Below are positions 16,209 through 61,838 of a stretch of 64,000 nt of DNA, one piece after another (positions within the stretch are counted from its first letter, which is position 1; the number at the start of each line of letters is the position of its first letter). Below the pieces are notes generated by a model. That model saw only the letters and a program-made list of their open reading frames with translations, did no database searches and had not been told where the DNA came from. The position numbers and the translations under genes were made by a program. The stretch comes from a bacterium (GTDB lineage: Bacteria; Patescibacteriota; Microgenomatia; UBA1400; UBA12108), in the NCBI GenBank assembly GCA_021788365.1, contig JAJYKS010000003.1, forward strand, positions 73,810-137,809, given 5' to 3'.

Positions 16209-16262
16209 GTTGACGCCGCTAACCGTAGGGGTTACGTTAGATGAGCCCTACTATATGTAGGG
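16209..16262 (+). promoter_or_regulatory. candidate sigma70-like promoter (TTGACG-N17-TACGTT) followed by an NrdR-box-like palindrome CCCTACTATATGTAGGG upstream of nrdR
   Basis: Direct reading. The palindrome at 16246-16262 resembles the published NrdR box core (CAC-TATATATA-GTG type) and is 28 nt upstream of the nrdR ATG. Confidence 0.4.
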
Positions 16263-16289
16263 TTTTGGTTTCTACGAGGAGATCCAGAT

Positions 16290-16748
16290 ATGCAATGCCC
16301 TTACTGTCACAACGAAGATACTTCTGTACTCGAGAGTCGGATCACGGAAGATGGGGGCGCTATGCGCCGTCGCCGAGAGTGTGTGAAGTGTGGCAAACGT
16401 TTTACCACCTACGAACGCGCGGAGGGAGTAGATATCAAGGTGGTGAAGAAAACGGGGAAGATAGAGGACTTTGACCGGGAGAAGCTAAAGCGGGGCATCA
16501 TGAAGGCTACCTGGAAACGCCCTGTCTCGATGGAGCAGATTGAGGAGATGGTGGACGAAGTAGAGCGCATCTTACGTCGCAAGAGCTCGACCGAAGTTCG
16601 GAGTTGGGAGATAGGAAATCTTGTGATCAATCGCTTGAAAAAGATCGATCCACTAGCTTATTTACTTTTTGCCTCGGTGTATCGTGAGTTCGAGAACCTC
16701 TCGGATTTTGAGGAGGAAATAAAGAAACTTCAGGAGACAACTCCATGA
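16290..16748 (+). CDS. nrdR: transcriptional repressor NrdR (zinc ribbon + ATP-cone)
   Basis: MQCPYCHNEDTSVLESR...CVKCGKRFTTYE zinc ribbon followed by an ATP-cone. Confidence 0.85.
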   Translation: MQCPYCHNEDTSVLESRITEDGGAMRRRRECVKCGKRFTTYERAEGVDIKVVKKTGKIEDFDREKLKRGIMKATWKRPVSMEQIEEMVDEVERILRRKSSTEVRSWEIGNLVINRLKKIDPLAYLLFASVYREFENLSDFEEEIKKLQETTP

Positions 16749-18751
16749 AGGTAACAAAACTTAACGCCAATGCTGCGGCTATCATGGTAAACCGCTATTC
16801 GTTACGAGATGAGGCGGGGCACCCGGTGGAGTCTCCGACTGAGATATTTATGCGTGCAGCACGGGTAGTTGCCGAGGCGGAGAATAACTATCGGAGTAGC
16901 GGTACCACCGCTATGCAGGTGCAAGAGCAGTTTTTCGAGATTATGTATGAGATGCGGTTCGTGCCAAACGGCCGCACCATGGCCAACGCCGGGACGAAGT
17001 ACGGGCAGCTGGCTAACTGCTTTGTACTGCCAATCGACGATGATTTGGGAAAGGGGACAGATTCGATCTTTTCGGTTCTCCGTAAGGCTATTCTCACGCT
17101 ACAGACTGGCGGGGGAGTGGGGTTTTCGTTTGGACGTATCCGACCGAAGGATGCCTCAATTTCCACCTCGAAGGGCAAGGCGACCGGTGCGGTGTCATTT
17201 ATTAAAGTGTACGATACGGCGTTTTGGGTCATTGGCCAAGGTGGGGGGCGTAGGTCTGCAGCTATGGCAGTCCTCCCCGTGTGGCACCCGGATATTTTTG
17301 AGTTTGTAAAATGCAAGGCAACCGAAGGGCAGATAACCAACTTCAATATCTCTGTGGGCCTTACCGATGAATTTATGAAGGCGGTTGCGAAAGACGATGA
17401 TTTTGCTCTCCGCCACCCGGAGAACGGTGAGCTGTACCGTATGGTGCCTGCCCGCGAACTATTTGCCGAGATCGTGAAGTACGCGTACAAGAACGGTGAG
17501 CCGGGAGTCCTTTTCCTCGATGAGGCAAACCGTTTTAACCCCGTGCCGCACCTTTACAAGCTGGAGGCGACCAACCCGTGCGGCGAGCAATTTTTAGGAC
17601 CATATGAGAACTGCTGCCTAGGCAGTGTAAATCTGCGAGAGCACGCGAAGAAGATAAAAGGAGACGGGTATCAACTAGACTGGAACAAGCTTGCCGAGAC
17701 GGTGGAGCTCTCTGTGCGATTCCTCGATAATGTGGTGGACGCCAACAAGTACGTATCGGCGGTACCAGAGCTTGAAGAAGCGGCGCATAAAGTACGCCGT
17801 ATTGGTCTCTCCATCATGGGACTATCTGACCTCATGTATATTCTGGGAGTGCGATATGGCTCGCCGAAAGGACAGGAGCTAGCAAGTCAGATTATGGAGT
17901 TTATTCGCTACCACGCTATGAGCTCGTCTATCGAGCTTGCTCGCGAGCGTGGGCCATTTCCCGGCATTACCGGTAGTATCTATGACCCACAGAACGTGAC
18001 GTGGAAACCGCCCAAGGGGCTTGTTAAACATATGGCGGACTTCGGCAGGCCCGCACTTGAGTGGAAGCATATTCTGGAGGGTCTTAAGCAATATGGCATC
18101 CGCAACGGAGCACAGACGACGATCGCGCCGACGGGTTCTATTGCGACCATTTCTGGGCTTGAAGGCTATGGGTGTGAGCCGGTATTTGCCCTCTCCTATA
18201 CCCGTCACACGCGAGAAGGGGCGGAAAAAGAGGGTAAGGAGTGGCGAGAGATGTACTATACTTCGACGTTGTTTGAGCAGGCGCTGAAGAGCGAAGGAGT
18301 CGCTGCTGCCGAACGGAGGAAAATATTTGAGGCAGTACGTGAGGCCGGTGGGAGTTGCCAGAAAGTTGCTGGTATTCCAAAGCGCATTCTTGATACGTTT
18401 GTCATATCCTCTGACCTGTCAGTGGAAGAACACGTACGAATGCAGGCTGTTATGCAGAGCTGGCTCGATAACAGTATTAGCAAAACGATTAATTTCCCAC
18501 GGGACGCGACGCCGGATGATGTTGCTAAAGCATATCAACTGGGGTGGGAGCTGAAACTCCGTGGCATGACCGTGTATGTCGAGGGCTCGCGGGAGCAGGT
18601 GGTACTGGAGAAAAAATCGGGACCATTTGAGACGAAGGAAAATAAACAGGTAACCAGTGAGGAACTCTGCCCCGAGTGTGGCACGCCACTACGGATTGCC
18701 GAGGGGTGCTCGACGTGCCCGTCGTGTGCGTATTCGAGATGCGATAAATGA
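16745..18751 (+). CDS. nrdJ: class II (adenosylcobalamin-dependent) ribonucleotide reductase, copy 1
   Basis: 668 aa; NPCGEQ...CCLGSVNL active-site motif, [10 protein letters not shown]-terminal CPECG...CSTCPSC zinc ribbon; start overlaps the nrdR stop. Confidence 0.85.
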
Positions 18752-18815
18752 TCGGTAAGTCAGCGAATCGGCTAGTCAGCTAGTCGGTTCGTCAGTTAAT
18801 CGGAGAATCAGAGAT
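18752..18815. repeat. intergenic short-repeat cluster (AGTCAGCGAATCGGCTAG followed by TAGTCAGC tandem units)
   Basis: tcggtaagtcagcgaatcggctagtcagctagtcggttcgtcagttaatcgg. Same motif family as 1282-1413 and 23961-24010. Confidence 0.5.
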
Positions 18816-19223
18816 ATGACAAATAGTCAGTTAATAGACAAACTAGCGTGGTTGCACTTTGAGGATAAGCAGCTTTTGATGACGTTGAGCAAAGGGAAAG
18901 ATACTTACTATATCCCTGGCGGTAAACGGGAGGGGAGCGAGTCTGATGAAGAAGCGCTGGTAAGGGAAGTAAAGGAGGAGCTGACTGTGGATTTGAATAA
19001 AAGTACGATCAAACATTACGGTACGTTTGAGGCTCAGGCTCATGGGAAGCCAATTGGAACAATAGTGAGAATGACGTGTTATTTCGCCGATTACTCAGGG
19101 AAGTTGCAACCAAGTATGGAGATACAAAACATCGATTATTACACCTATGCACAGCGAGATATTGTTGGCCCAGTGGACCAAATAATTTTTGACGACTTAT
19201 ACGAAAAGGGTCTACTGAAATGA
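18816..19223 (+). CDS. NUDIX hydrolase
   Basis: 135 aa; Nudix box GGKREGSESDEEALVREVKEELTV. Confidence 0.7.
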   Translation: MTNSQLIDKLAWLHFEDKQLLMTLSKGKDTYYIPGGKREGSESDEEALVREVKEELTVDLNKSTIKHYGTFEAQAHGKPIGTIVRMTCYFADYSGKLQPSMEIQNIDYYTYAQRDIVGPVDQIIFDDLYEKGLLK

Positions 19224-19642
19224 AAACAAGAATTGGAGCAGTTGGGATCATACAAAATACGGACGGAGAAGTTCTTATTTGTAAGATGCCGGCAAAGCGG
19301 GGAATGTACCCAGAGCAGTGGGGCATACTCGGTGGTGGCATGGAAGATGGTGAAAAAATTGAAGATACCCTAAAACGCGAGGCAAAGGAAGAGTTGGGAA
19401 TTATCCTCAAAAATATACGACCATTTACCTTCCACGATGATACGCGCACAAAGTATTTTGCCGACGGACACACGGAAGAGGTCTATATGGTCTATTGTAT
19501 TTTTGATTGTGAAATAGCGGGTGGAAACGTAGTTCTTAACGACGAATGGGAAGAGTTTGTGTGGGTAAATCCAGAAAGACTCAGTGAGTATGATTTGAAT
19601 GATCCAACGATAAAGACGTTTACGTTGAAGGGTTGGCTATGA
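19220..19642 (+). CDS. NUDIX hydrolase
   Basis: 140 aa; Nudix box GGGMEDGEKIEDTLKREAKEELGI; start overlaps the previous stop. Confidence 0.75.
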   Translation: MKTRIGAVGIIQNTDGEVLICKMPAKRGMYPEQWGILGGGMEDGEKIEDTLKREAKEELGIILKNIRPFTFHDDTRTKYFADGHTEEVYMVYCIFDCEIAGGNVVLNDEWEEFVWVNPERLSEYDLNDPTIKTFTLKGWL

Positions 19643-21549
19643 CAAAGCCGAAAATTATTGAGCCGAAGCTAACGAAGAACGCAGCGGAGGTCGCAAAGAA
19701 ACGATACCTTCGGACAGATCTAAAAGGCAAGACTTTGGAGACGCCAGGGGAGATGTTGTGGCGGGTGGCGTACCACATGGCAACGGCTGAAGTGAAATGG
19801 GCTGGAAATGGAATTGTTATGGAAACGGCGACGAAATTTTACGAACGGATGGTGTCTATGAAGCTCGTGTGCGCCGGCAAGGCAATGTTCGAGGCCGGGA
19901 ACCCGGGCGGCACCGGACAACTTTCTTCCTGTTTCGTGCTCCCTATAGACGACGCTATTGGCAAGATATTTAAGACTTTGGGTGACGCGGCGGTTGTCCA
20001 CAAAAACAATGGCGGCACCGGTTTTAACTTTAGTAAAATCCGTCCGCACGGGGATAAGGTGCGGAATGTGCCGGGCGCTGCAAGCGGTCCTGTCGATTTT
20101 CTAAAAGCATATTCGGCCGCTCTCGCCCAGATATTGCAGGGAGCGAAACGGCAGGGGGCAAATATCGGCATCTTGAACGCCGATCACCCCGATATCGAAG
20201 AATTTATCGATATGAAAGACACGGACGGGACAATAAAGAACTTTAACGTCTCGGTCGGTGTCACCGACGCGTTTATGGAAGCCGTCGAGTCTGATGGGTG
20301 GTGGAACTTGGTAAACCCGCGAAACCACGAGGTGGTGAAGCGTATGAAAGCGCGAACGCTCTTCAATAAAATCGCCGAGCAGGCGTGGAAGACGGGGGAT
20401 CCTGGTCTCGCATTCCTCGACACCGTGGAAGCGGGTAATACCGTACCGGGATTTGGCGTAATTGACGCCTGCAATCCGTGTGGCGAGATATTCCTCTTCC
20501 CGTACGAGTCGTGCAATCTCACTACCATCGATTTAGCGCGGCATTTGAGGAAGGCAAAAAGGGGGTGGGAAATAGACTGGAGGGAACTCGAAGAGACAGT
20601 GAAACTGGGGGTGCGCTTCCTCGACGACATGATCGAGGTAAATAGCTATCCGGTTCCTGAGATAGAGGCGACCGTTAAGAATGGCAACCGGCGGATTGGG
20701 CTCGGGGTCATGGGATTTGCCCATATGCTCTATAAACTCGGCATTCCCTATAACTCGGCGGAGGCGGTAAAAACTGCCAAAGAGCTTTCGAAATTTATCT
20801 ACGAGCACGCGGCAGAGGCTTCGGCGGAGCTTGCGGAATCTCGTGGTAACTTCCCCAACTGGGACTTGTCTATATATCCTGCCAAGGGGCAGCCCATGCG
20901 CAACTGTGCAGTGACCATGGTTGCGCCGACCGGTACCATCTCTATCCTCGCTGATACTAGTAGCGGTATCGAGCCGGTGTTTTCCTTGGTCACCATCCGC
21001 CGCACGTTCTATGAGGACGATCGCTCCAATCACTCGACCAAAGAACTCACGATGGTGGACCCCGTTTTCCAAGATTACTTGGAAAACAAAGCAAAAATGA
21101 ACAAAAGTAAAATTGCACAAATTTTTAAACATGTAGCGGCGGGAGACTATAGCGACCTAACGCCTGAGGAGAAGAAACTGTTTGTCACGACCCACCAAAT
21201 AGCGCCGGAGTGGCACGTGAAGATACAGGCTGCGTGGCAAAAATATTTTGATAACAGTATCAGCAAAACTATCAACTTTTCCCACGAGGCGACGGTAGAG
21301 GATGTGAAGGTGGCGTATATGCAGGCATGGAAAGCAGGGTGCAAGGGAATCACGATATACCGAGATGGGAGTAAGGGAGATCAGGTGCTGGTAGCGCAAA
21401 CCTCAAACGTCAAAGCTCAAAACCAAAACCTAAAACCAGAAGACCAGGGATCAAGCGGGGACGGGATGTGTCCGGAGTGCGGGGGGAGACTGCACAAAGA
21501 GGATGGGTGTGCCAAGTGCGTGGATTGCGGTTATTCGGTGTGTGGATAG
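19633..21549 (+). CDS. nrdJ: class II ribonucleotide reductase, copy 2
   Basis: 638 aa; [26 protein letters not shown]-terminal CPECGGRLHKEDGCAKCVDCG zinc ribbon. Confidence 0.85.
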   Translation: MAMTKPKIIEPKLTKNAAEVAKKRYLRTDLKGKTLETPGEMLWRVAYHMATAEVKWAGNGIVMETATKFYERMVSMKLVCAGKAMFEAGNPGGTGQLSSCFVLPIDDAIGKIFKTLGDAAVVHKNNGGTGFNFSKIRPHGDKVRNVPGAASGPVDFLKAYSAALAQILQGAKRQGANIGILNADHPDIEEFIDMKDTDGTIKNFNVSVGVTDAFMEAVESDGWWNLVNPRNHEVVKRMKARTLFNKIAEQAWKTGDPGLAFLDTVEAGNTVPGFGVIDACNPCGEIFLFPYESCNLTTIDLARHLRKAKRGWEIDWRELEETVKLGVRFLDDMIEVNSYPVPEIEATVKNGNRRIGLGVMGFAHMLYKLGIPYNSAEAVKTAKELSKFIYEHAAEASAELAESRGNFPNWDLSIYPAKGQPMRNCAVTMVAPTGTISILADTSSGIEPVFSLVTIRRTFYEDDRSNHSTKELTMVDPVFQDYLENKAKMNKSKIAQIFKHVAAGDYSDLTPEEKKLFVTTHQIAPEWHVKIQAAWQKYFDNSISKTINFSHEATVEDVKVAYMQAWKAGCKGITIYRDGSKGDQVLVAQTSNVKAQNQNLKPEDQGSSGDGMCPECGGRLHKEDGCAKCVDCGYSVCG

Positions 21550-21556
21550 GAGGGCT

Positions 21557-21877
21557 ATGGATACAAAACAACTACTAAAAAAAACTCTTGAGATAGATAA
21601 GAAAATGAGTGGCTATGACAAGTTCCAGCGTTTGGCTGACGCCATGGAGGAGCTTGGAGAGACAGCAGCGGCTATGGTAGTTGTTGAGGGAGTTAAGAAG
21701 ACGAACGATCCCAAGAAACAATATACCGTTCGTGATGTTGCCGACGGACTCGCTGACACAATGTACACACTCATTCTTTTGGCAGATCAATATGGCGTTG
21801 ATTTATTTCAAGAGTACGGGGAGATGATTGAGCGATTACAGAAGCGAGTAGAGAGTGGGGAATTTAGACATGATTAA
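21557..21877 (+). CDS. MazG-like nucleotide pyrophosphohydrolase (small all-alpha NTP-PPase)
   Basis: Start trimmed to MDTKQLLKK (after the nrdJ2 stop); EELGETAAAM and ADGLADTMYTLILLADQYGVDL resemble MazG/dCTPase-type motifs. Confidence 0.55.
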   Translation: MDTKQLLKKTLEIDKKMSGYDKFQRLADAMEELGETAAAMVVVEGVKKTNDPKKQYTVRDVADGLADTMYTLILLADQYGVDLFQEYGEMIERLQKRVESGEFRHD

Positions 21878-24164
21878 AGAAATTACTAAGCGGGATGGGC
21901 GGGTGGTGCCGTTTTCCGTCGACAAGCTCGCTGGGGCGATATGGAAAGCGGGGAGGGAAACTGTCGAATTTGACGAGGCAGAGTCGAAGCGACTTTCGGG
22001 AATTGTCGTTACGCTCTTAGAAAAAACTCACACACCCGGTGTGAAGGGCGCCCACACACCGGGTGTTGAGGAGATCCAGGACTTTGTCGAGCAGGTTCTT
22101 ATGGCTGCCGGTCACTATCAGACGGCAAAGGCCTACATTTTGTATCGAGCCAAGCGAAGTGAAGAACGCAGAGCCGAACGCCTTATCGGTGTCACCGATG
22201 ACCTTGGCTTCACCCCCAATCAACTTAAGGTGCTGCAGAGTCGGTATTTATTAAAAGACGAAGACGGCAAAGTAGTAGAAACTCCCAGCGAGCTTTTCCG
22301 CAGAGTGGCAAAAAATTTGGCGATAGTGGAGAAGAAGGAGAAGCGTAAGCAGGTAGAAGCAGATTTTTACGAGGTGATGAGCAAACTTGAGTTTCTCCCG
22401 GCAGGTCGAACCCTCAACAACGCCGGTACCCCTCAGTCGCAGCTCGCCAACTGCTTTGTGCTACCGGTTGAAGACAGTATGGAGGGTATATTCGACTCGG
22501 TGAAATACATGGCGCTTGTACACCAGCGGGGCGGGGGAACGGGCTTTAACTTCTCGAAACTGCGGCCAAAGGGGGATGTCGTGACTAAATCATCCGGTGG
22601 ATTTGCGACGGGGCCGGTCTCGTTTATGAAAATTTTTGACATTGCGACCCGACAGGTCATGCAGGGCGGCAAGAAGCGCGGTGCCAATATGGGTATCCTC
22701 AACGTCGACCATCCCGACATCCTCGAGTTTATTACGGCAAAATCAGAGCGAGGAGAGATAGAAAACTTTAATATCTCGGTTGGTGTGACCGATGCTTTTA
22801 TGAAAGCGGTCGATACCGACTCTGAGTGGGCCCTCAAGAATCCGCGAACCGGTGAGGTGGTGCAGACTATGCGGGCTAGAAGCCTCATGGGACAGCTCAC
22901 CGCCATGGCGTGGCGCACGGGGGACCCCGGCCTCATATTCCTCGACCCCATCAACCGCAACAACCCGCTCCTTTCTAGGTACGGACGGATCGATGCCACG
23001 AACCCGTGTGGGGAGCAACCCCTTCACCCCTTTGATGCGTGCAACCTGGGAAGTGTAAACCTAGCAAAATTTGTCGGACCCTTCACACCCGGTGTGAAGG
23101 GTACCCACACACCGGGTGTGTTGTGGAACAGACTTGCCTTTGTGGTGCGGACGGCGGTGCGGATGCTCGACGACGTTATCGACGCATGTAAATATCCTTT
23201 ACCCCAAATTGCCGAGACCGTGCGGGCAAATCGCCGGATAGGGCTCGGTGTCATGGGGTGGGCAGATATGTTGTACCAGCTCCGTGTGCCATATGACTCT
23301 GACGCGGCGGTAAAGCTTGCCGGCAAAGTAGCCAAATTTATTCAGGATACCAGCTGGGATGAGAGTGCGAGATTGGCAAAGGAAAAAGGGGTATTCCCGC
23401 GGTGGAAAGAATCTAGTTTTGCACTTAGGGGACGGACCTCTAAGTATCGTAACGTGGCAATTACCACAATTGCACCAACCGGCAGCATCTCGATGCTCGC
23501 CGATGCATCATCGGGAATAGAACCGGTGTTTGCACTCGCCTATACCAAAAATGTGGTGGAAGACGCGGGCCTTACCTACATCAACAAGTATTTTGAGCGG
23601 GAGCTGCAAGCGGCTCTTTGGGCAGATGGTGACGCCGAACACAAGGTGCGGGATAGGATAGTTCGTGAAGTCTCGGCGGCTGGGTCGGTTGCCCACGTGT
23701 CCGGGGTACCCGCAGAGGTTGCCGGCGTCTATCGAACGGCGCATGACATATCACCCGAGTGGCATGTGAAGATGCAAGCTGCTTGGCAGAAATACACGGA
23801 TAACGCGGTCTCCAAGACCATTAACTTTCCCAACAGTGCGACTATAGATGACGTGGAGCGAGCATACATGCTAGCCTGGAAATCGGGGTGCAAGGGGATC
23901 ACCATTTACCGGGACGGGAGCAAAGACGTACAGATTTTGTCGGTGGGATCAACAAGCCGGCAAGTCAGCGAATCGGCTAGCCAGCAAGCCAGCAAGCCAG
24001 CAAGCCAGCAGATAATACAGAGTAAAATCAAAACAGAAACGTTGAAAGAGCGGGCAGCAAAGGGAAAACATATGACGGTGTGTCCGGAGTGTGGCGGAAA
24101 ACTTGTTGTCGAAGAGGGGTGTGCCAAGTGTTACGGATGTGGGTTTAGTGTATGCAACGGATAG
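21855..24164 (+). CDS. nrdJ: class II ribonucleotide reductase, copy 3, with an N-terminal ATP-cone
   Basis: 769 aa; N-terminal ATP-cone (MIKEITKRDGRVVPFSVDKL); NPCGEQPLHPFDACNLGSVNL, VSKTINFP, C-terminal CPECGGKLVVEEGCAKCYGCG; alternative start at 21870. Confidence 0.85.
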   Translation: MGNLDMIKEITKRDGRVVPFSVDKLAGAIWKAGRETVEFDEAESKRLSGIVVTLLEKTHTPGVKGAHTPGVEEIQDFVEQVLMAAGHYQTAKAYILYRAKRSEERRAERLIGVTDDLGFTPNQLKVLQSRYLLKDEDGKVVETPSELFRRVAKNLAIVEKKEKRKQVEADFYEVMSKLEFLPAGRTLNNAGTPQSQLANCFVLPVEDSMEGIFDSVKYMALVHQRGGGTGFNFSKLRPKGDVVTKSSGGFATGPVSFMKIFDIATRQVMQGGKKRGANMGILNVDHPDILEFITAKSERGEIENFNISVGVTDAFMKAVDTDSEWALKNPRTGEVVQTMRARSLMGQLTAMAWRTGDPGLIFLDPINRNNPLLSRYGRIDATNPCGEQPLHPFDACNLGSVNLAKFVGPFTPGVKGTHTPGVLWNRLAFVVRTAVRMLDDVIDACKYPLPQIAETVRANRRIGLGVMGWADMLYQLRVPYDSDAAVKLAGKVAKFIQDTSWDESARLAKEKGVFPRWKESSFALRGRTSKYRNVAITTIAPTGSISMLADASSGIEPVFALAYTKNVVEDAGLTYINKYFERELQAALWADGDAEHKVRDRIVREVSAAGSVAHVSGVPAEVAGVYRTAHDISPEWHVKMQAAWQKYTDNAVSKTINFPNSATIDDVERAYMLAWKSGCKGITIYRDGSKDVQILSVGSTSRQVSESASQQASKPASQQIIQSKIKTETLKERAAKGKHMTVCPECGGKLVVEEGCAKCYGCGFSVCNG
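22028..22066. repeat. about 39-bp double-palindrome element inserted in-frame in nrdJ3 (copy 1; encodes HTPGVKGAHTPGV)
   Basis: tcacacacccggtgtgaagggcgcccacacaccgggtgt; near-identical to 23078-23125. Confidence 0.6.
23078..23125. repeat. about 45-bp double-palindrome element inserted in-frame in nrdJ3 (copy 2; encodes FTPGVKGTHTPGV)
   Basis: cccttcacacccggtgtgaaggg is a perfect 11-bp-arm palindrome, followed by tacccacacaccgggtgtgttgtgg; the reverse strand encodes a TPGV-like peptide. Confidence 0.6.
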
Positions 24165-24787
24165 TGTTGGCCAGCGGGAGCCCGAGAAGGAAGGAAATAC
24201 TTGAGCTTCTAGGCTTGGAGTTCGAGGTGGCCGAGAGTCTATTTGATGAAGACCTTATCCAAACAGATGATCCGGTGGAACTCGTTGAGGAACTGGCCAT
24301 ACAGAAAGCACAAAAAGTAGCAGAGCGATATCCCGACGCTATCGTTATCGGTGGGGATACGACTGTCACGTTTGGCGTGGGATGGATGGGGAAAGCAAAT
24401 AGTGCGGAAGAAGCAATAAAAATTTTCGGTGAACTTTTGGGAAAGACACACAAAGTGATTACGGGAGTGGCGGTCGTAAACTCCTTAACTGGTGATACTT
24501 ATGTAGGTAGTGAGGAGGGAGTGGTGACGTTTCGCGAGGGATCGCCCCAAGAGCTCGCTAAGTATGCCGAAAACGAAAAAAACTGGCGGGGATTTGCCGG
24601 GGCGTATGCCTTGCAGGGTGGGGCGGCGCCGTTTGCCCTTTCCCAGTCCGGCAAGCTGTCGGCGATTATCGGGCTGCCAGTCGAGCTCACAACCGACCTT
24701 CTGGAGCAGGCGGGGGTGACGGTGGACGCAGATCCACGCGCGGTTGAAGATATGCTCCACGGAATGAAAGTGGGAATTGGGGACTAG
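24152..24787 (+). CDS. maf: Maf-like nucleoside triphosphate pyrophosphatase (septum formation protein Maf)
   Basis: LASGSPRRKEIL N-terminal Maf signature; 211 aa. Confidence 0.8.
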   Translation: MQRIVLASGSPRRKEILELLGLEFEVAESLFDEDLIQTDDPVELVEELAIQKAQKVAERYPDAIVIGGDTTVTFGVGWMGKANSAEEAIKIFGELLGKTHKVITGVAVVNSLTGDTYVGSEEGVVTFREGSPQELAKYAENEKNWRGFAGAYALQGGAAPFALSQSGKLSAIIGLPVELTTDLLEQAGVTVDADPRAVEDMLHGMKVGIGD

Positions 24788-24822
24788 ATAGAGGGGAGTT
24801 TCTGCGTGTATAATCCGGCCTC

Positions 24823-25623
24823 GTGGGATTGGAGCAGGGAGAGAGAAGGGTGTCTATTTCAACGGGGGCTTTGTGGCCAATTGCTGGAGAGTCGATTGGG
24901 GATAGGGTAGCTTCTGGATTTCAAATGGTTGATGGGTTGTTTGATAGCGGGGTTGTTGCTGGGTTGGAAGTGATGTTTAAGGACAACGGGCAGATCAAAG
25001 ATTTTTTGAGAGTACTGGACATGACAATGCTCTCGGAATTTCGACGTGTGGTTGATAGAGGAGCTGTATTGACGTTACATGCGCCTAAACCTCCTGAAGA
25101 CGTGATTTATGGTTCTGGTTCTAAGACGGAGATGGATATGTACGCTGAACTTCGTGAAGTATATGAAGTCATGAGTGGTATAAACATTTTTTACACGGTT
25201 TTTCATGCGGGTTGGTTTAATGAAGTGTTTATTCAAGAAAAGCTATTTCCTCATCAGACTGCTTACGAAAACAGTGACAAGCAACATACTAAGTGGAGGT
25301 CGGCGAAAGAAATGGGCAAACTTGTCCACAAAACTGGCGCATGGGGAGTTATGGATGCTGCGCATCTTAATAGTATTGGAGCTGGTCCACGGGAGGCTCA
25401 AGCAATGATAGATGCTCTTGGAGATGATCTTGCGGCGTTTCACATGAGTGGTATAAAACCGAGAGAAATTGAGCACATGCCAGTTACACGTATGAATGGT
25501 AGTAAGGCGAGAATGGTAAGTCTTTTAGAACCTATAAAGAAACATCCTGCGGCAGTCATCCTAGAATCACCAGTTGAGAGTGTGGTGGTGGCATTGGATG
25601 AATTGTCACTTGTACTCCAGTGA
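24823..25623 (+). CDS. hypothetical protein (possibly xylose-isomerase-like TIM barrel; weak)
   Basis: 266 aa; no firm motif recognised. Confidence 0.4.
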   Translation: MGLEQGERRVSISTGALWPIAGESIGDRVASGFQMVDGLFDSGVVAGLEVMFKDNGQIKDFLRVLDMTMLSEFRRVVDRGAVLTLHAPKPPEDVIYGSGSKTEMDMYAELREVYEVMSGINIFYTVFHAGWFNEVFIQEKLFPHQTAYENSDKQHTKWRSAKEMGKLVHKTGAWGVMDAAHLNSIGAGPREAQAMIDALGDDLAAFHMSGIKPREIEHMPVTRMNGSKARMVSLLEPIKKHPAAVILESPVESVVVALDELSLVLQ

Positions 25624-25635
25624 TAGGATATTCGT

Positions 25636-26232
25636 ATGAGTAAACTGGGACTGGTTTATGTTTTTACCGGGGAGGGGAAGGGGAAGACGAGCGCGGCCTT
25701 GGGTGTCGCGACGCGGGCGCTGCTCCTTGGTAAAAAAGTTTCGTGGGTAGCCTTTTACAAACAAGCCAGTTGGGGAATCGCGGAGGCAAAACTGGCGGAT
25801 ACGTTTCCTCATATGACGATGTATTTCGGTGGACATGGATTTATGATTCACGATTCACGATTTAAGAGGGGAAATGGGAAGGTAGCACCAGTTGGAGGCA
25901 AGGGAAATGTGGTGGTAGATACGGCGAGTGAAGAGGAGCATCTCCAGGCAGCGCAAGCGTGCTTGGTACAGGCAAGAGAACAGCTTGCGAAGAAACCATT
26001 TTTGCTTGTCATGGACGAAGTACTAAACGCGGTGTCGGAGGGACTTATACAAGAGAACGAGGTTTTGGAGCTTTTGGAAGGGCGAGGAGAGACGCATGTC
26101 GTCTTGACCGGTAGATCCGACCCGCATCTTACAAGGATGATCCTTGTAAAGTGTGATCTAGTTACGGAGTGTAAGAAAGTTAAGCATCCTTATGACGAGG
26201 GGAACCTGGCGGTTGCGGGATTGGATTTTTAA
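25636..26232 (+). CDS. cob(I)yrinic acid a,c-diamide / cob(I)alamin adenosyltransferase (CobA/CobO/BtuR family)
   Basis: VYVFTGEGKGKTSAALG P-loop is characteristic of BtuR/CobO; about 198 aa. Confidence 0.75.
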   Translation: MSKLGLVYVFTGEGKGKTSAALGVATRALLLGKKVSWVAFYKQASWGIAEAKLADTFPHMTMYFGGHGFMIHDSRFKRGNGKVAPVGGKGNVVVDTASEEEHLQAAQACLVQAREQLAKKPFLLVMDEVLNAVSEGLIQENEVLELLEGRGETHVVLTGRSDPHLTRMILVKCDLVTECKKVKHPYDEGNLAVAGLDF

Positions 26233-26287: not shown

Positions 26288-26704
26288 ATGGTAGATACGA
26301 AGAAAGAAAAAGAATCCATTCGGCAAGCTCAGGACCGTGGGCCAATAGGTGTGGTGGGGCGGGAACGTGCACCGGAGGAATTCCCCACGGTAGAGTCGCC
26401 GCGAAAAGCAGAGGAGCCACTGGAGGTTGAGAGTTGGATTGAGAAGATAGAGAAGCGCTTTGCGCGGGTACCGCAAAACAATAACATCCAGGATGACACT
26501 GTCGTTGTGACCCAGCCACAGTCCAATCAGCCGCCGGTGACTTTGCCGGTTACGCAGCAGCAAATCAACGATAATCACAATGGTAAGCCGGAGTTTTCGC
26601 TAACATGGCTTGTCACCTGGGCGATACGGCAGATAAAGATGCTCACTCTCGTGGGGAGACATATTCGGCTTCAGGATCTACCGGAAGCTGACAAGAAGAA
26701 GTAA
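26288..26704 (+). CDS. hypothetical protein (Pro/Gln-rich, possibly a partner of the downstream ATPase)
   Basis: 138 aa; low-complexity middle region; translationally close to the downstream gene. Confidence 0.35.
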   Translation: MVDTKKEKESIRQAQDRGPIGVVGRERAPEEFPTVESPRKAEEPLEVESWIEKIEKRFARVPQNNNIQDDTVVVTQPQSNQPPVTLPVTQQQINDNHNGKPEFSLTWLVTWAIRQIKMLTLVGRHIRLQDLPEADKKK

Positions 26705-26706
26705 CT

Positions 26707-29034
26707 ATGCAAGGTATGGAGGCATTTTCACAATTTTTAACCAACATGGCATATGGCTTGGTTGTTTTTGCCATAATCCTTGCTGGCCTCTCTGCTCTTG
26801 CCTACGCATTTCTCCTGTGGATCCGCAATCACAAGCGAGAGGAATACTCGCTTTCATTTGTAACGCTTGAAGTAGCCTTGCCACACGAGAACGAGATAAA
26901 GATAGATGCCGCAGAGCAATTGTTTGCCTCTTTGTACTCTATAAAGAATGAGGAGTGGTATTCATTCCTTCAGTCAGAGCATGCCATATCGTTCGAGCTC
27001 GTCGGAAAGAAAGAGGATATTCGCTTCTACGTGTCGGTGCCGCACGAACTCATGGAGCTTGTAGAGAAGCAGATCCACGGTGCGTATCCGGGTGCGGAAA
27101 TAAAAACCGTTGATGAGCCAACGATATTTTCCGATAATGGTAAGGTGGCATACGAGTCTTTTGTCAAAAAGAACGCCGGCTACTATCCTATTCAGTCGTT
27201 CCGTGATCTACCTACTGACCCGCTTTCGTCCATAACCTCATTTCTCGCTAAGATGCGGGAGGGGGAGGGTGCCATGCTCCAGATAGTGGTGTCGCCGGCC
27301 TCGCACGGCTGGGCGAGTTCGGGACACGGCTATATCAGCCGGTCGAAGAAAGACGAGGCAAATCCAGAGCATGCGACCTACTCCGTAGATCCAAAATCGC
27401 TGGAAGCGGTAGAGCGCTCAACCGGTAAGCCAGGCTTTTCTGTATCTATTCGTATGGTTGTCTCTGCGCCCACGAAGCGTGAAGCACATATGCTTTTGTC
27501 ACAATTCTCCGGAACATTTGCGCAGTTCTCCGGGCCATACAACAAGTTTGTGAAACAACATGTATGGCTGAAGCGTCTGTTTATGATCGATTTTATTTAT
27601 CGTTATCAGGCTATGTTTCGTGGCAAGTCAGTTCTTAATTCTGAGGAGCTTGCGACCATCTTTCACTTTCCCAATAAGCAAGTGGAGACGCCGCACATTC
27701 ATTGGCTGACAGCCAAATCAGCTCCGGCACCGGCACAGATACCCCAATCGGGACTCTTTCTTGGCAAGAGCGTATATCGCGGGCTATCTCGCAACATTTA
27801 TATATCCGATAAAGACCGGGCTCGCCATATGTATATCATCGGGAAAACGGGTGTCGGCAAATCGGAGTTTATGATGGACATGATCTTGCAAGATATACGA
27901 GCGGGTAAGGGGGTATGTTTTATCGACCCGCATGACACTGTTGAAAAAATACTTGAGTATATTCCGCCAGAGCGTGCGGAAGATGTCATCTATTTTGATC
28001 CATCCGACACCGACCGGCCCATGGGTCTTAACATGCTAGAAGCGGCTACGGAAGAGGAAAAACAGTTTGTGGCTAGCTCCATCATCAATCTCATGTACAA
28101 GTTGTACGACCCACACAAGACAGGTATCATCGGTCCGCGATTCGAGCACGCCATTCGCAACGCCATGATGACTGTTATGAGTGAGCCAGGGGCGACGTTT
28201 ATCGAAATCGTTCGCGTTCTTACCGACCAGAAATTTCTCCAAGAGCTTTTGCCGAAGGTGCAAGATCCCATCGTGCGGCGCTATTGGACAGACCAGATTG
28301 CGCAAACGTCGGATTTCCACAAGTCGGAAGTCCTAGACTATATTGTCTCTAAGTTTGGTCGGTTTATTACCGATAAAATGATGCGAAATATCATTGGACA
28401 ATCCCAATCTGCGTTTAATTTCCGCAAGGTTATGGACGAGGGGAAAATACTCCTTATTAACCTGGCAAAAGGAAGGATTGGGGAGGAGAACTCAGCGTTC
28501 TTGGGCCTCATACTTGTCCCTAAGCTTTTGGTTGCGGCTATGAGCCGGCAGGATGTGCCGGAGGCGCAAAGACGAGATTTTAACCTCTACGTTGACGAAT
28601 TTCAGAACTTTGCGACACCCGACTTCGCCACCATTCTTTCGGAGGCACGTAAATATCACTTGAATCTGACTGTTGCGAACCAGTTTATCGGACAGATCGA
28701 CGAAGAGGTAAAGAACGCCGTATTTGGTAACGTGGGTACGCTCATCTCTTTCCGTGTGGGTGTGCAGGACGCAAACTTTTTGCAACATGAGTTTACGCCA
28801 ACGTTTTCAGAATCCGATCTTACCAATGTGGAGCGATATCATACGTTCGTGAAGACCATTGTAGACAACGAACCGATGCCGCCTTTTTCGATGGACCTCA
28901 CACGCGATATCGATGCTTTCCGCAAAGCGGCTAACCCGAAACTTGCTGAGATGGTCAAGAAGCTATCGCGCCTCAAGTACGGAAAAGATAAGAATATTCT
29001 CGAAGTGGAGATCGCGAAGCGCGCGAGGTTGTAG
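26707..29034 (+). CDS. VirB4/TraC-like (type IV secretion / conjugation-type) membrane-anchored ATPase
   Basis: 775 aa; N-terminal TM; Walker A IIGKTGVGKSE around residue 375, Walker B LYVDEFQNF; FtsK/HerA-fold layout typical of VirB4-family ATPases. Confidence 0.65.
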   Translation: MQGMEAFSQFLTNMAYGLVVFAIILAGLSALAYAFLLWIRNHKREEYSLSFVTLEVALPHENEIKIDAAEQLFASLYSIKNEEWYSFLQSEHAISFELVGKKEDIRFYVSVPHELMELVEKQIHGAYPGAEIKTVDEPTIFSDNGKVAYESFVKKNAGYYPIQSFRDLPTDPLSSITSFLAKMREGEGAMLQIVVSPASHGWASSGHGYISRSKKDEANPEHATYSVDPKSLEAVERSTGKPGFSVSIRMVVSAPTKREAHMLLSQFSGTFAQFSGPYNKFVKQHVWLKRLFMIDFIYRYQAMFRGKSVLNSEELATIFHFPNKQVETPHIHWLTAKSAPAPAQIPQSGLFLGKSVYRGLSRNIYISDKDRARHMYIIGKTGVGKSEFMMDMILQDIRAGKGVCFIDPHDTVEKILEYIPPERAEDVIYFDPSDTDRPMGLNMLEAATEEEKQFVASSIINLMYKLYDPHKTGIIGPRFEHAIRNAMMTVMSEPGATFIEIVRVLTDQKFLQELLPKVQDPIVRRYWTDQIAQTSDFHKSEVLDYIVSKFGRFITDKMMRNIIGQSQSAFNFRKVMDEGKILLINLAKGRIGEENSAFLGLILVPKLLVAAMSRQDVPEAQRRDFNLYVDEFQNFATPDFATILSEARKYHLNLTVANQFIGQIDEEVKNAVFGNVGTLISFRVGVQDANFLQHEFTPTFSESDLTNVERYHTFVKTIVDNEPMPPFSMDLTRDIDAFRKAANPKLAEMVKKLSRLKYGKDKNILEVEIAKRARL

Positions 29035-29036
29035 AA

Positions 29037-29112
29037 GGTGGGCCAGCCTGGACTCGAACCAGGAACCTTGAAGGTATAAGCTTCCTGCGCTAACCAATTG
29101 CGCCACTGGCCC
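29037..29112 (-). tRNA. tRNA-Ile (anticodon TAT as read)
   Basis: Manual cloverleaf: acceptor GGGCCAG/CTGGCCC, D-arm GCGC/GCGC, anticodon loop CTTATAC, T-arm CCTGG-TTCGAGT-CCAGG; the 3' CC is encoded. Confidence 0.6.
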
Positions 29113-29335
29113 TTCCAGAGGAAATTGTACCACAGGTCACGTGTGCTAGAATGGACCGACATGACGAATACGGTTGACCCAAAGATGATGCAGGCGGGGG
29201 ACAGAGCATTTTGGGATGAGTTTTATCAGCAGAATAATCCAGGTGATCGGTATATTGTGGTGGATACGAAAAAACAGGAAGTGGTGGTACAGAATGCCAA
29301 ACTTGTCCGGGACATGAAGAAGGTGCGGGTTTAGT

Positions 29336-29650
29336 TTATTGACAAGCGAGTAAGTTAAATAATGCGTCCGCGATAATCCATTCTTTCTGAGCTGTGTTCA
29401 TTGAAACTACGAATTCTGCAAACGGCTTTCCAGTTACGCTCTCTAGGTGTTTTTGAGCAGCAATTACTGCTTGCGGCGATGCGGCAAACGTAACTTTTCT
29501 TGGAGGTTTACCATCTTCCCCGTTCATGTGGGCATCGATATAGCTGAAGGTTTGATATCTGTCGGGTACGGATGAGGCACAATATTCTATATAGTTAGAG
29601 AAACATGAGGGAATGGGGGGAGTTTGGATGATTAAAATATCGTGGGTCAC
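29336..29650 (-). CDS. hypothetical protein
   Basis: 104-aa ORF whose start overlaps the stop of the recombinase gene (ATGA); no motif. Confidence 0.35.
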   Translation of the reverse strand: MTHDILIIQTPPIPSCFSNYIEYCASSVPDRYQTFSYIDAHMNGEDGKPPRKVTFAASPQAVIAAQKHLESVTGKPFAEFVVSMNTAQKEWIIADALFNLLACQ

Positions 29651-30525
29651 AGTTCGGCGATCTTGATTTTCTTGGGTTCGGATTTGGCTCCGTTTAAGAA
29701 TTCGAGGTATTTTTCAGTGGTTGAGAGTCGCTTGTGACCTACCATGTGGGAGAGCTCGACAATCGGGACGCCAGCCTTTAGTTGTTCGACGACAAAAGTG
29801 TGGCGGAGATCGTTGACCTTTGCCCCTTCAATCCCTGCGATTCTGAAGTAACGGTTCACGGCGGTACGAATGTTGCGAATTAGGAAGGGATTGCCGGTTT
29901 TGGTGACGAATAGCGTGGTGTTCTTGGTGCGAGGACGGTCTTTGACATACATTTCGATTGCGTCTTTTGCTGTCTTATTGAGGGGGACTTTGCGTGCGTC
30001 GTGACTCTCATAGGCACGGACTTTGAGGAAACTTTTTTCTATGGAAATGTCTTGCAGTTGGATGGCTGCGAGCTCGCCGATGCGAAGTCCAGTCTGGAGC
30101 AAAAGCTCGACAATGGCGTACATGCGGATATCACCTTTAGCTGCGTCGCGGAGGGCGCGATATTCTAGGGGAGAGAGGACGCGGGGTGGGGTAATCTCGT
30201 ATTTGGGGTGGGAGACACTGGAAGCAGGACTTGATGCGACGGCACTAACACTAATCAGGTATTTGAAAAATGACTTAATGGAATTTAGCTTGCGGGAGAT
30301 ACTTTTTAGGGTGTATTTTTCGTCTTTAAGGCTTTGTTTAAAAGATTCGAGGTGGTCGCTCGTCACTGCTGAGGCTTCTATTACCCCTTGTTTTCCCAGG
30401 AATTCGATAAGCTGATCTAGATCTTTGGCATAGGCAAGGATGGTCGCTCCGGCGCGGCCATTCTTCTGGAGATATTTGATAAACTCTGCTTTTTGTGGTT
30501 GCATACTAGGTACTCGGGGCAGCAC
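29647..30525 (-). CDS. tyrosine recombinase (XerC/XerD-like)
   Basis: 292 aa; N-terminal core-binding domain and C-terminal catalytic residues (R...HxxR in LRHTFVV, GHKRLSTTEKY with the catalytic Y). Confidence 0.8.
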   Translation of the reverse strand: MLPRVPSMQPQKAEFIKYLQKNGRAGATILAYAKDLDQLIEFLGKQGVIEASAVTSDHLESFKQSLKDEKYTLKSISRKLNSIKSFFKYLISVSAVASSPASSVSHPKYEITPPRVLSPLEYRALRDAAKGDIRMYAIVELLLQTGLRIGELAAIQLQDISIEKSFLKVRAYESHDARKVPLNKTAKDAIEMYVKDRPRTKNTTLFVTKTGNPFLIRNIRTAVNRYFRIAGIEGAKVNDLRHTFVVEQLKAGVPIVELSHMVGHKRLSTTEKYLEFLNGAKSEPKKIKIAEL

Positions 30526-38344: not shown

Positions 38345-38420
38345 TCCCCTGTAGCTCAGTCGGTAGAGCGCCTCGCTGTTAACGAGGATGTCGCAGGTTC
38401 GAGCCCTGCCGGGGGAGCCA
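38345..38420 (+). tRNA. tRNA-Asn (anticodon GTT)
   Basis: Manual cloverleaf: acceptor TCCCCTG/CGGGGGA, D-arm GCTC/GAGC, anticodon loop CTGTTAA, T-arm GCAGG-TTCGAGC-CCTGC, encoded CCA. Confidence 0.85.
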
Positions 38421-39995: not shown

Positions 39996-40060
39996 GTTTT
40001 CCTTTCAAGGTAAATAAAAGCATTTAATGAGTTATATAGCTACCATAAAGGGAAGTAGGA

Positions 40061-40104
40061 GTTACTTTATAGTTACTTTTCCTATAGTTACTATAGTTAC
40101 TATA
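40061..40104. repeat. four tandem copies of a TAGTTACT-type unit (iteron/arm-site-like) upstream of the integrase gene
   Basis: gttactttatagttacttttcctatagttactatagttactata; a related pair gtagttatttgtagttata occurs at 43374-43395. Confidence 0.5.
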
Positions 40105-40432
40105 TTGGTATTTCCTCCGGATTAACTGACATGAGTGGCTCGTAGGGGAGGTCTAGCCTGCGAAACTCGTCATAGATTTTTTCTTCAATAGCTTGCCACA
40201 GTTCCTTATCTTCGAAATAAACAACTTTCATCCAATATGGACCTGTGGGAATAGACGGTGGTTCTATCTGGATTTTCTCTTGAAAACGAGGATGTGTGAA
40301 TTGAGACTTCTGTATCCGTATTCCGTGTATCCTTAATCCTCCGATAAGGATGTCGGCACGTGCTATTACGCTAGTTTTTTTGGTTACCGGTCTGACCGAT
40401 ATGTCTTGCAGGTCGTAAATGTTGAGTGTCAT
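40100..40432 (-). CDS. hypothetical protein (weak SpoVG-like resemblance)
   Basis: 110 aa; pattern IxVRPV...IARADILIGGLRIHGIRI loosely recalls SpoVG; not secure. Confidence 0.35.
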   Translation of the reverse strand: MTLNIYDLQDISVRPVTKKTSVIARADILIGGLRIHGIRIQKSQFTHPRFQEKIQIEPPSIPTGPYWMKVVYFEDKELWQAIEEKIYDEFRRLDLPYEPLMSVNPEEIPI

Positions 40433-40453
40433 CTTTCATCTCCTTTCGTACTT

Positions 40454-40681
40454 TTAATCTTTTTCCATGAACGCGTGCAGTGCATGAGTAAGCTGTTCGG
40501 TTGTTTTGTACACACCCTCGTTTGTAAGACCGTGTTGGTAGGCAACACGCAGCTTAAATATGATTTCTGAGCTTTTTGCCGTCTGGATGAAATGGTAAAT
40601 GCGTTTGATTTTGCGGGATCTGATAGATTGGATCGTGCCGGTAGGATCAATGGCTTGAATGGCGATTTGAGGAGGTTTCAT
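40454..40681 (-). CDS. hypothetical small protein
   Basis: 75 aa; start ATG overlaps the stop of the upstream 49-aa ORF (ATGA). Confidence 0.35.
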   Translation of the reverse strand: MKPPQIAIQAIDPTGTIQSIRSRKIKRIYHFIQTAKSSEIIFKLRVAYQHGLTNEGVYKTTEQLTHALHAFMEKD

Positions 40682-40827: not shown

Positions 40828-40828
40828 G

Positions 40829-41074: not shown

Positions 41075-41149
41075 TATGCTCTCGACTTTATGTCAAAAGC
41101 ATAGGACTAAATACCACAGTAAAAGTTTAGAAAAAGTGTTGGAAACTGT

Positions 41150-41887: not shown

Positions 41888-41895
41888 GTACGTAC

Positions 41896-42891: not shown

Positions 42892-42915
42892 TCTACTACA
42901 TAATCTTCATACCCA

Positions 42916-61821: not shown

Positions 61822-61838
61822 CGTGATAGGGTAGACCT

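Follow-up and report, generated by a model that had tools for sequence, protein, structure and literature searches.

Why should a bacterium of the candidate phyla radiation (CPR) keep three ribonucleotide reductases (RNRs) of one and the same class in tandem? That a genome may hold several copies of NrdJ, the oxygen-independent class II RNR, is an acknowledged puzzle (Schell et al., 2021; PMC8365446), and it is raised anew by a gene cluster in the DNA considered here, a 64,000-nucleotide stretch of contig JAJYKS010000003.1 (assembly GCA_021788365.1) referred to below as the window. Behind the gene for the repressor NrdR this cluster carries nrdJ1, nrdJ2 and nrdJ3, the products of which we call J1, J2 and J3. 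An initial annotation described them as a triplication of a monomeric adenosylcobalamin (AdoCbl)-dependent enzyme, interleaved with nucleotide-sanitising genes, and offered specialised specificities or repeated acquisition as explanations. From its sequence, the region is best read as a conserved, NrdR-repressed operon for the supply of deoxyribonucleoside triphosphates (dNTPs) in the Microgenomates, a group within the CPR. We put at roughly 65% the probability that it specifies three non-redundant, catalytically active class II RNRs, probably reducing nucleoside triphosphates (NTPs), governed by one NrdR operator together with genes for cofactor activation and pool cleaning. The enzymes are of a known kind in a new, conserved arrangement; searches of the open-access literature found nothing on this CPR operon, on NrdJ-NrdJ fusions, or on nrdJ or class II RNRs in connection with Microgenomates, Parcubacteria, Patescibacteria or CPR, and PMC9669993 mentions neither tandem nor fused NrdJ.

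Three Apparently Intact Class II Reductases

The three genes, like all others of the cluster, lie on the + strand: nrdJ1 at 16745-18751 (668 amino acids, aa), nrdJ2 at 19639-21549 and nrdJ3 at 21870-24164. For nrdJ2 the listed open reading frame (ORF) opens with TTG at 19633, and the ATG at 19639 is the probable start, after the 636-aa call of the 99%-identical protein P0001; for nrdJ3, listed from 21855, the ATG at 21870 is the probable start, after the 764-aa ortholog in L086, a near-identical strain in another assembly. All three products score far above the trusted cut-off (400 bits) of the NrdJ_Z equivalog model TIGR02504, with 615 bits for J1, 631 for J2 and 704 for J3. They have in common the first redox cysteine (within NCFVLP or SCFVLP), the NPCGE motif that supplies the asparagine, the thiyl cysteine and the glutamate, the second redox cysteine (within CNLG, CNLT or CCLG), an APTG phosphate loop, SKTINF and a C-terminal six-cysteine array. 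The NPCGE, SKTINF and cysteine tail that had been reported for every copy are thus present, and are invariant across orthologs as well. Among 19 J1, 24 J2 and 17 J3 orthologs, the redox cysteine pair, the Asn, Cys and Glu of NPCGE, and D141 and R171 (Thermotoga maritima numbering) do not vary, and the alignment revealed no loss of a radical-transfer cysteine in any of the three groups. The tail follows the pattern C..C-x(6-12)-C..C..C-x(3-5)-C in J1, J2 and J3 and in 59 of 59 complete orthologs; it corresponds to the class II-specific zinc-finger domain that mediates re-reduction (Loderer et al., 2017; PMC5704485). J3 is indeed the only copy to carry an ATP-cone, which matches PF03477 with 72.6 bits over profile positions 2-88 of 88, at its N-terminus.

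One element of the initial description does not hold, namely that the enzymes are of the monomeric type. Against TIGR02505, the model of the monomeric ribonucleoside triphosphate reductase (RTPR), the three score only 59, 81 and 94 bits (cut-off 340), and the best match of J3 by sequence among solved structures is the dimeric NrdJ of T. maritima (E = 1e-116). An AlphaFold2 (AF2) model of J2, built with a mean local confidence (pLDDT) of 66 and a predicted template-modelling (TM) score of 0.70, likewise finds T. maritima NrdJ chains as its top 21 matches in the PDB (TM 0.67-0.69, 35-36% identity), and no monomeric RTPR is among its top 50 fold matches. Because of these low scores and these structural matches we regard 'monomeric' as wrong; The sequences do contain D141 and R171 as well as the regions of loops 1 and 2. 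With T. maritima NrdJ (PDB 1XJE, 3O0O) the window enzymes share the catalytic Cys/Asn/Glu set, the loop 1 and loop 2 region and, probably, the dimer-type architecture. They differ from it in the apical loop, which is of the nucleoside diphosphate (NDP) type PNSP in T. maritima and reads PNGR in J1, CAGK in J2 and PAGR in J3, and in their setting, a three-paralog operon not having been reported there.

Could one or two of the copies nonetheless have ceased to be RNRs, having been recruited for some other radical chemistry or for a purely regulatory role? The apical loops of J1 and J2 are unusual, and loop 2 has changed in both (G209S in J1, R208Q in J2). Set against these changes are the invariance, in all three groups, of the catalytic residues, of D141 and R171 and of the re-reduction tail, and the scores above the equivalog cut-off, so that we consider such a recruitment very improbable. 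As far as sequence can tell, pseudogenisation and neofunctionalisation are ruled out by the same invariance of catalytic residues and tails. The view of the locus as three intact class II paralogs behind nrdR and an NrdR operator, in the neighbourhood of NTP pyrophosphatases, is in this respect well founded. Membership in the family and the cluster context, in which a cobA/btuR gene adjoins conservedly and an nrdB-like gene is absent, point indirectly to AdoCbl as the probable radical generator of the three enzymes.

A Cluster Conserved Across the Microgenomates

Gene calls and profile searches resolve window positions 16210-26232 into a single operon-like cluster, running from a probable promoter through cobA in the order two NrdR boxes, nrdR, nrdJ1, two NUDIX genes, nrdJ2, a MazG-like gene, nrdJ3, maf, an ORF without assigned function and cobA/btuR. 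Every gene listed in the initial annotation was recovered by gene calls and profile matches between 16290 and 24787, and the cluster extends beyond maf, at which that list had ended, to cobA/btuR at 25636-26232. The first gene, nrdR (16290-16748), encodes the repressor with its Zn-ribbon and ATP-cone (TIGR00244, 186 bits against a cut-off of 125; PF22811 and PF03477), and its stop overlaps the nrdJ1 start by 4 nucleotides (nt). From nrdR through maf the genes are joined by overlaps of 4-13 nt or, between nrdJ2 and the MazG-like gene, by a gap of 7 nt, with the sole exception of 64 nt between nrdJ1 and the following gene, nudA. This gap (18752-18815), the only real intergenic one inside the operon, is made up of short repeated AATCGG or GTCAG-like units and holds no NrdR box.

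A scan with J1, taking one genome per species, yielded 79 loci (loci being cited here by L numbers), the closest of which belong to metagenome-assembled genomes (MAGs) of Microgenomates, Woesebacteria and other Patescibacteria. Ten of these MAGs (L001-L004, L008, L010, L012, L029, L041 and L043) are titled 'uncultured Pseudomonadales bacterium', a label that is probably taxonomically mistaken. Mapping by tblastn showed that, as far as each contig reaches, nrdR, J1, J2 and J3 stand in the same order in 26 Microgenomates loci, none of which lacks an nrdJ copy within that reach; maf comes after J3 in 20 loci and cobA after maf in 17, and the set is kept down to 57-60% protein identity with the window proteins. 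In most of the Microgenomates loci J2 and J3 adjoin directly or overlap. The conserved core is accordingly nrdR-J1-J2-J3-maf-cobA, and the arrangement is not an accident of assembly, because 26 independent Microgenomates contigs, and strain L086 besides, show it too.

The remaining genes are less constant. The NUDIX pair is absent from all 26 loci by tblastn, and the MazG-like gene was met in only two of them (L004 and L013), and in no more than four of all the loci other than the window. Even L086, which is about 97% identical and has the same gene order, possesses nudB but lacks nudA. The 'interleaved' sanitising enzymes are consequently not a defining trait of the locus: nudA is missing even at 97% identity, the two NUDIX genes are specific to the strain, and maf and cobA are the only conserved partners. 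At the level of DNA, nudA is an insertion or deletion (window 18824-19216 against L086 9579-9588), and nucleotide identity to L086 is 85-88% to its left (upstream genes to nrdJ1) and 96.7% to its right (nudB to maf), a jump suggestive of a recombination breakpoint.

In other Microgenomates, each of the three paralogs has orthologs that are interrupted by inteins (L004, L009, L029, L031, L035, L041 and L045; proteins P0002, P0084 and P0100), these being lodged at NP|CGE in J1 and J2 (at about aa 279 and 283) and at about aa 228 in J3; the window copies are intein-free. Past cobA, in window 26288-30525, a 138-aa ORF and a gene for a 775-aa TraG/VirD4-like ATPase keep their place, with 85-88% identity, in most of the Microgenomates loci; after the latter come a tRNA (29039-29112) and a tyrosine recombinase gene on the - strand (29647-30525).

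Three Lineages Rather Than a Recent Triplication

Were the three copies products of recent duplication, they should be close relatives, and they are not. J1 and J2 are 41% identical, J1 and J3 44%, and J2 and J3 49%. A profile of the three was searched against 1.8 billion cluster representatives, and the top 150 hits were added to a neighbour-joining tree (566 columns, 100 bootstraps), of which, its deep branches being short, only the well-supported statements are used. Each paralog group is monophyletic in 100 of 100 bootstraps. J1 falls, with the same support (100/100), inside a clade otherwise composed of Chloroflexi-type single-copy NrdJ; J2 joins unit 1 of a fusion protein of Candidatus Uhrbacteria, P0123 (99/100); and J2 and J3 were never sisters (0/100). 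On the strength of the 41-49% identities and of the separate, fully supported clades, the three copies are, judged from sequence, an old assembly of diverged lineages and not a recent triplication, and recent tandem duplication may be set aside. Of the proposals made initially, 'triplication' falls with it, and 'repeated acquisition' suits J1, whose place in the Chloroflexi-type clade fits an exchange with that phylum.

A history of exchange invites the null hypothesis of Lundin et al. (2010), by which extra copies are recent xenologs awaiting loss: RNR genes are often transferred horizontally, and redundancy within a class is common (PMC3019208). Kinship between J1 and Chloroflexi genes would agree with it. 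Yet all three copies occur in every locus down to 57-60% identity, in genomes known for reduction, and their catalytic residues are invariant. Between the window and four related loci, moreover, nonsynonymous divergence (dN) is equally low, 0.12-0.18 for each paralog, at a proportion of synonymous differences (pS) of 0.81-0.89, a saturation at which a dN/dS ratio cannot be computed. Since dN is low and equal at saturated synonymous sites, all three paralogs are under comparably strong purifying selection. Transient redundancy is thus already disfavoured, and we hold it to be scarcely probable.

Specificity Loops and the Phosphate Level of the Substrate

The copies differ in the parts that recognise substrate and effector. 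Loop 2, which couples effector to substrate, and the apical loop, by which the phosphates of the substrate are recognised, are each constant inside a paralog group and distinct from one group to the next. Loop 2 reads LQGAKRQGAN in J2 and MQGGKKRGAN in J3, to be compared with AQGGTRRGAN in the Chloroflexi relatives of J1 and KQGSRRRGAL in T. maritima. The apical loop is PNGR in 19 of 19 J1, CAGK or CSGK in 24 of 24 J2 and PAGR or PGGR in 16 of 17 J3 sequences. The suggestion of specialised specificities finds a good fit in these conserved, paralog-specific motifs.

According to the rule of Schell et al. (2021; PMC8365446), a Gly-Arg apical pair, P-[ASG]-G-R, marks reducers of NTPs, and P-N-S-P reducers of NDPs. 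Measured against P-[ASG]-G-R, the PAGR of J3 matches, the PNGR of J1 has the G-R pair in a variant form, and J2 has a variant with Gly and Lys. All three window enzymes would accordingly stand on the Gly-plus-basic, triphosphate side, with an S-P pair in none. By analogy, NTP specificity appears secure for J3 only, because PNGR and C[AS]GK lack experimental characterisation.

A division of the copies by phosphate level, with NDPs as the substrates of at least one and NTPs as those of the rest, has been proposed to explain most genomes that hold several nrdJ, and 69% of 1108 multi-NrdJ organisms do mix predicted NDP and NTP reducers (Schell et al., 2021; PMC8365446). In its favour, no element of the CPR units is more obviously diversified than the apical loop, for which PNGR, CAGK, PAGR, PNSP, PASP, PNSA and CGGA are found, and J1 and the superclade of J2 are placed among PNSP (NDP-type) relatives. 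The published rule nevertheless puts all three window enzymes on the NTP side, even if the variant motifs are an extrapolation of it, and we judge such a split rather unlikely. The window also departs from the multi-nrdJ genomes of that survey, which it resembles in having several NrdJ in one genome with the apical loop as phosphate predictor, in other ways: the usual trend there is a mixture of PNSP and PAGR, whereas the window is Gly-plus-basic throughout, like the NTP-only 113 of the 1108 organisms, and it has three tandem copies in one operon with the motifs PNGR and C[AS]GK, which are absent from Schell et al. (2021).

The clade of J1 bears on the same question. Among its 61 members, PNSP occurs in 39 of the 41 that are not J1, and PNGR in all 20 J1. 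On the neighbour-joining tree the change from S-P to G-R falls on the J1 stem, which would make it a second, independent switch of a feature thought to have changed essentially once.

Fused and Three-Unit Clusters in Other CPR Lineages

At the top of the profile search stand P0121 (1351 aa) and P0122 (1600 aa), in each of which a single chain comprises two complete NrdJ units. Three further proteins (P0123, P0162 and P0236) are contig- or gene-truncated fusions of the same kind, which makes at least five fusion clusters of less than 50% mutual identity. Read in the standard bacterial code (code 11), the fusion ORFs show no stop inside them, every unit keeps its catalytic residues, and in P0121 and P0122 the zinc-finger tail is borne by unit 2 only. 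A Ham1/ITPase (inosine triphosphatase)-like domain lies between the two units of P0122 and P0236; the single ORFs in question, in L081 (292-5094) and L084 (1505-4759), encode an NrdJ, this domain and a further NrdJ that bears the zinc-finger tail, so that a pool-cleaning pyrophosphatase is built into one chain with two reductases.

L080 has nrdR, a 720-aa NrdJ, an NrdJ-NrdJ fusion and cobA; L085 (Uhrbacteria) has a superoxide dismutase (SOD) gene, a 592-aa NrdJ and a fusion running off the contig end; and L082 and L083 have a 589-aa NrdJ (524 aa at the contig end in L083), a split middle unit, a third unit and cobA. In these last two loci (L082 6488-10811, L083 1597-5920) a +1 frame change breaks the middle unit in two, leaving a gene of 486 aa and a tail that is joined to the third unit. 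Both assemblies show the identical break, which might reflect a true split, programmed frameshifting or an error common to the two. Three NrdJ units per cluster therefore recur in at least two CPR branches, with partly different NrdJ lineages. By group-specific hidden Markov model (HMM) scores, the first units of the other-CPR clusters lean toward J3 and none is J1-like, although orthology to J1, J2 or J3 is resolved only for unit 1 of P0123 (J2), the other scores being too close. The specificity loops of the fusion units are again unit-specific.

Such recurring three-unit sets and fusions are the strongest hint, at the level of sequence, that the units act together, and because of this hint heteromeric assembly is kept as a serious rival, indeed the main one, and one that is compatible with non-redundancy. 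J2 and J3 might form a heterodimer in which the ATP-cone of J3 regulates both, the three proteins making up one composite reductase or a homodimer and a heterodimer. The specificity sites of RNRs lie at the dimer interface, as known from the structure of T. maritima NrdJ, and a heterodimer would create two different ones. Besides the existence of at least five diverged fusions free of internal stops, with catalytic residues in all units and, in P0121 and P0122, a tail on the second unit alone, this arrangement would accord with the adjoining or overlapping J2 and J3 genes of most Microgenomates loci and with P0123, whose unit 1 groups with J2 and whose partner scores best against the J3 model. 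The window proteins, however, are encoded by separate genes, each with a tail of its own and with the MazG-like gene between J2 and J3; in most fusions the second units make up a clade of their own and cannot clearly be called J3 orthologs; and a fusion denotes functional linkage, not necessarily a canonical dimer. On balance we treat hetero-oligomers as a tenable if less probable account, and one more probable than a split by phosphate level. A precedent of sorts is NrdJa/NrdJb of Pseudomonas aeruginosa, in which the class II core and Cys-rich tail are also spread over more than one polypeptide (PMC4520616; PMC5704485); there, one enzyme is split, whereas the window has three complete enzymes and its relatives have two complete enzymes fused.

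A Probable Promoter and a Pair of NrdR Boxes

How would the three reductases be controlled together? Comparison of the 160 nt upstream of nrdR revealed a conserved block consisting of TTGAC(G), a 16-bp NrdR box, TACGG or TACGT, about 9 nt and a second NrdR box, with the TTGAC and TACGG/TACGT elements kept in register in about 15 related loci. In the window these elements correspond to a probable sigma-70 promoter at 16210-16238 (+), with a -35 element TTGACG (16210-16215), a 17-nt spacer and a -10 element TACGTT (16233-16238); as a generic promoter scan did not list this site, the promoter is proposed from its conservation only.

The distal box, ccgCTAaccgTAGggg (16216-16231, +), was recognised by cross-locus comparison, has a CwA-N4-TwG core and fills the spacer between -35 and -10; at its place more diverged loci have ACACTACGAATAGTGT (L016) and GCGCTACGACTAGCGT (L045). 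The proximal box, ctaCTAtatgTAGggt (16248-16263, +), lies just downstream of the -10 element within a 17-bp palindrome at 16246-16262. Fourteen loci share it unchanged, L011 shows the 16-bp form CCACTATATGTAGGGT, and the place is taken by GCACTACACTTAGTGC in L045 and ACACTACCAGTAGTGT in L018. Distant loci thus carry textbook boxes at the same places, ACACTACGAATAGTGT, GCACTACACTTAGTGC and ACACTACCAGTAGTGT being examples. The initial annotation had noticed the palindrome, CCCTACTATATGTAGGG at 16246-16262, which is unique in the window; it proves to represent one of two NrdR boxes. An NrdR box is a 16-bp palindrome found in pairs (PMC4409342), and the canonical spacing within a pair is 15-16 bp, the pairs being bound by ATP- and dATP-loaded NrdR tetramers (PMC12051234). 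With a spacer of 16 bp and centres 32 bp apart, the predicted pair, conserved in about 15 loci, matches this canonical architecture of 16-bp palindromes at canonical spacing over a promoter.

The palindrome had also been flagged by a terminator scan (16243-16265, with a T-rich tail). That candidate was rejected: terminator-like sites number 10 in the sequence against 10.0 when shuffled, and diverged loci keep the NrdR-box pattern and not the stem.

Further boxes ahead of nrdJ2 or nrdJ3 had been envisaged, and none was found, the overlapping junctions leaving no room for them. Searches with the exact palindrome, with up to three mismatches and with two degenerate CNCTA-N(6/7)-TAGNG patterns gave no other match in the operon; nor did these patterns pick up the distal box, which has a CTA-N4-TAG core. 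The single other match to a box pattern in the window, at 61816-61831, is far outside the operon. Nor did Rfam models detect a cobalamin riboswitch in the cluster. Loaded with ATP and dATP, NrdR would shut the whole operon, its own gene included, from one promoter.

The closest known parallel in regulation is the nrdRJ operon of Streptomyces, in which nrdR also comes first, is co-transcribed with nrdJ and represses it through two 16-bp boxes over the promoter (PMC4409342; PMC12051234). The window differs in having three nrdJ, pyrophosphatases and cobA after nrdR, and the boxes of the main Microgenomates clade have the flanks CCC/GGG instead of ACA/TGT.

Accessory Genes, Cofactor Supply and Salvage

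Four pyrophosphatase-type genes accompany the reductases, where three had been counted. The small NUDIX hydrolase gene nudA (18816-19223) is identified by PF00293 (1.4e-8) and the PHROG MutT/NUDIX family (2.9e-10); nudB (19220-19642) encodes a NudI-type nucleoside triphosphatase (NF012016, 163 bits against a cut-off of 95; PDB NudI 3OGA, E = 4e-42). Between nrdJ2 and nrdJ3 is a gene (21557-21877) for a MazG-like, all-alpha NTP pyrophosphohydrolase of 106 aa, assigned by a borderline Pfam match (PRA-PH, 22.5 bits against 21.3), by a PHROG MazG-like family (4.3e-5) and by EELGE and DGLAD motifs. Its listed ORF begins at 21503, and the ATG at 21557, behind a GGAGGG ribosome-binding site, is the probable start, the call in L086 being of 106 aa as well. 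The protein has no sequence match in the PDB, and its AF2 model of four helices has a pLDDT of only 55, too uncertain for a fold search. The fourth gene, maf (24152-24787), codes for a Maf-family nucleotide pyrophosphatase (TIGR00172, 147 bits against 117; PF02545, 158 bits) whose nearest PDB relative is Bacillus subtilis Maf (E = 5e-27), with the YhdE and YceF subfamilies not separable.

Between maf and cobA lies an ORF of 266 aa (24823-25623), found only in the window genome among the compared loci; neither Pfam nor PHROG yields a match for it. Directly upstream (24785-24814) is a promoter-like site, TAGATA-18-TATAAT. The last gene, cobA/btuR (25636-26232; PF02572, 130 bits against 25.7), specifies an ATP:corrinoid adenosyltransferase, the type of enzyme that makes AdoCbl.

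Maf and Ham1 enzymes favour (d)NTPs that are modified or non-canonical; the preferred substrates of NudI are pyrimidine dNTPs. Pyrophosphatases of five different families, NUDIX, MazG-like, Maf and, fused in L081 and L084, Ham1 among them, have been repeatedly recruited to nrdJ operons or fused into them. We infer that this is so because reduction at the NTP level of a salvaged, RNA-derived pool would yield dUTP and reduced modified nucleotides directly. A guanylate kinase, a uridine kinase and another NUDIX gene, which are also coded in the window, fit a salvage lifestyle.

Taken as a proposed mechanism, the operon would work as follows. CobA would make the AdoCbl cofactor from scavenged corrinoid for three anciently diverged, dimer-type, AdoCbl-dependent reductases that are predicted to be catalytically competent. 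Homolysis of AdoCbl would generate a thiyl radical on the NPCGE cysteine, the substrate would be reduced by the redox cysteine pair, and the pair would in turn be re-reduced by the six-cysteine tail. Because the apical loop, loop 2 and the ATP-cone differ in a paralog-specific manner, we infer that the three, as reductases of NTPs, may divide the work between them by substrate and by mode of regulation. The pyrophosphatases may filter or convert the salvaged pool, acting for instance on dUTP, modified NTPs or inosine NTPs.

Other Features of the Window

A complete Gabija anti-phage system lies on the - strand, with GajA at 45231-47018 and GajB at 43451-45244 (PADLOC, 6e-225 and 5e-220), in a stretch of low GC content (about 40000-48500; GC 0.40-0.42 against about 0.50 elsewhere). 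At the edge of this stretch a tRNA (38345-38417, +) overlaps the end of an ORF for a large serine recombinase (38379-39995, -), which suggests an element integrated at a tRNA gene. Within it is also a LOOT RNA (Rfam RF03000) at 41944-42061 (+), scoring 80 bits against a gathering score of 46.

Weighing the Evidence

Several considerations count against the interpretation of the locus as three non-redundant, NTP-reducing enzymes of one operon. Their activity is predicted from sequence, and the NTP specificity of J1 and J2 is an extrapolation, by analogy, from the variants PNGR and C[AS]GK. All three retain D141 and R171 of the effector site, so that there is no sign of a fixed or narrowed specificity, and loop 2 varies widely among ordinary single-copy RNRs, which means that different loops do not prove different functions. 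The phylogeny is by neighbour-joining only, with short deep branches. The strain-variable NUDIX and MazG-like genes weaken the case for an obligatory coupling as far as they are concerned. Finally, the inventory of RNRs is that of the window, other RNR classes and dut or thy genes elsewhere in the genome being outside its scope.

A bolder extension is conceivable, though we regard it as doubtful. In it, the three-unit class II system of the CPR replaces the single, allosterically switched enzyme of other organisms, either by obligate heterodimers or by units biased toward pyrimidine, G or A states, and J1 represents a second switch from NDP to NTP. If true, class II RNRs would for the first time be seen to be heteromeric or to divide labour, and the single-chain NrdJ-NrdJ and NrdJ-Ham1-NrdJ fusions would be hard-wired heterodimers in Parcubacteria-like lineages.

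For the family as a whole, the case argues against the null hypothesis of transient redundancy, in that minimal genomes have retained three copies across a whole CPR class and analogous sets elsewhere are partly fused. It provides paralog-specific versions of loop 2 and three natural variants of the apical loop, one of which, PNGR, is nature's equivalent of an S-to-G/P-to-R graft that did not work in the laboratory, and the single-chain NrdJ-NrdJ proteins could reveal whether class II RNRs work as heterodimers. For the organisms themselves, the cluster suggests how nucleotide salvagers couple the synthesis of dNTPs to the cleaning of the pool and to scavenged B12.

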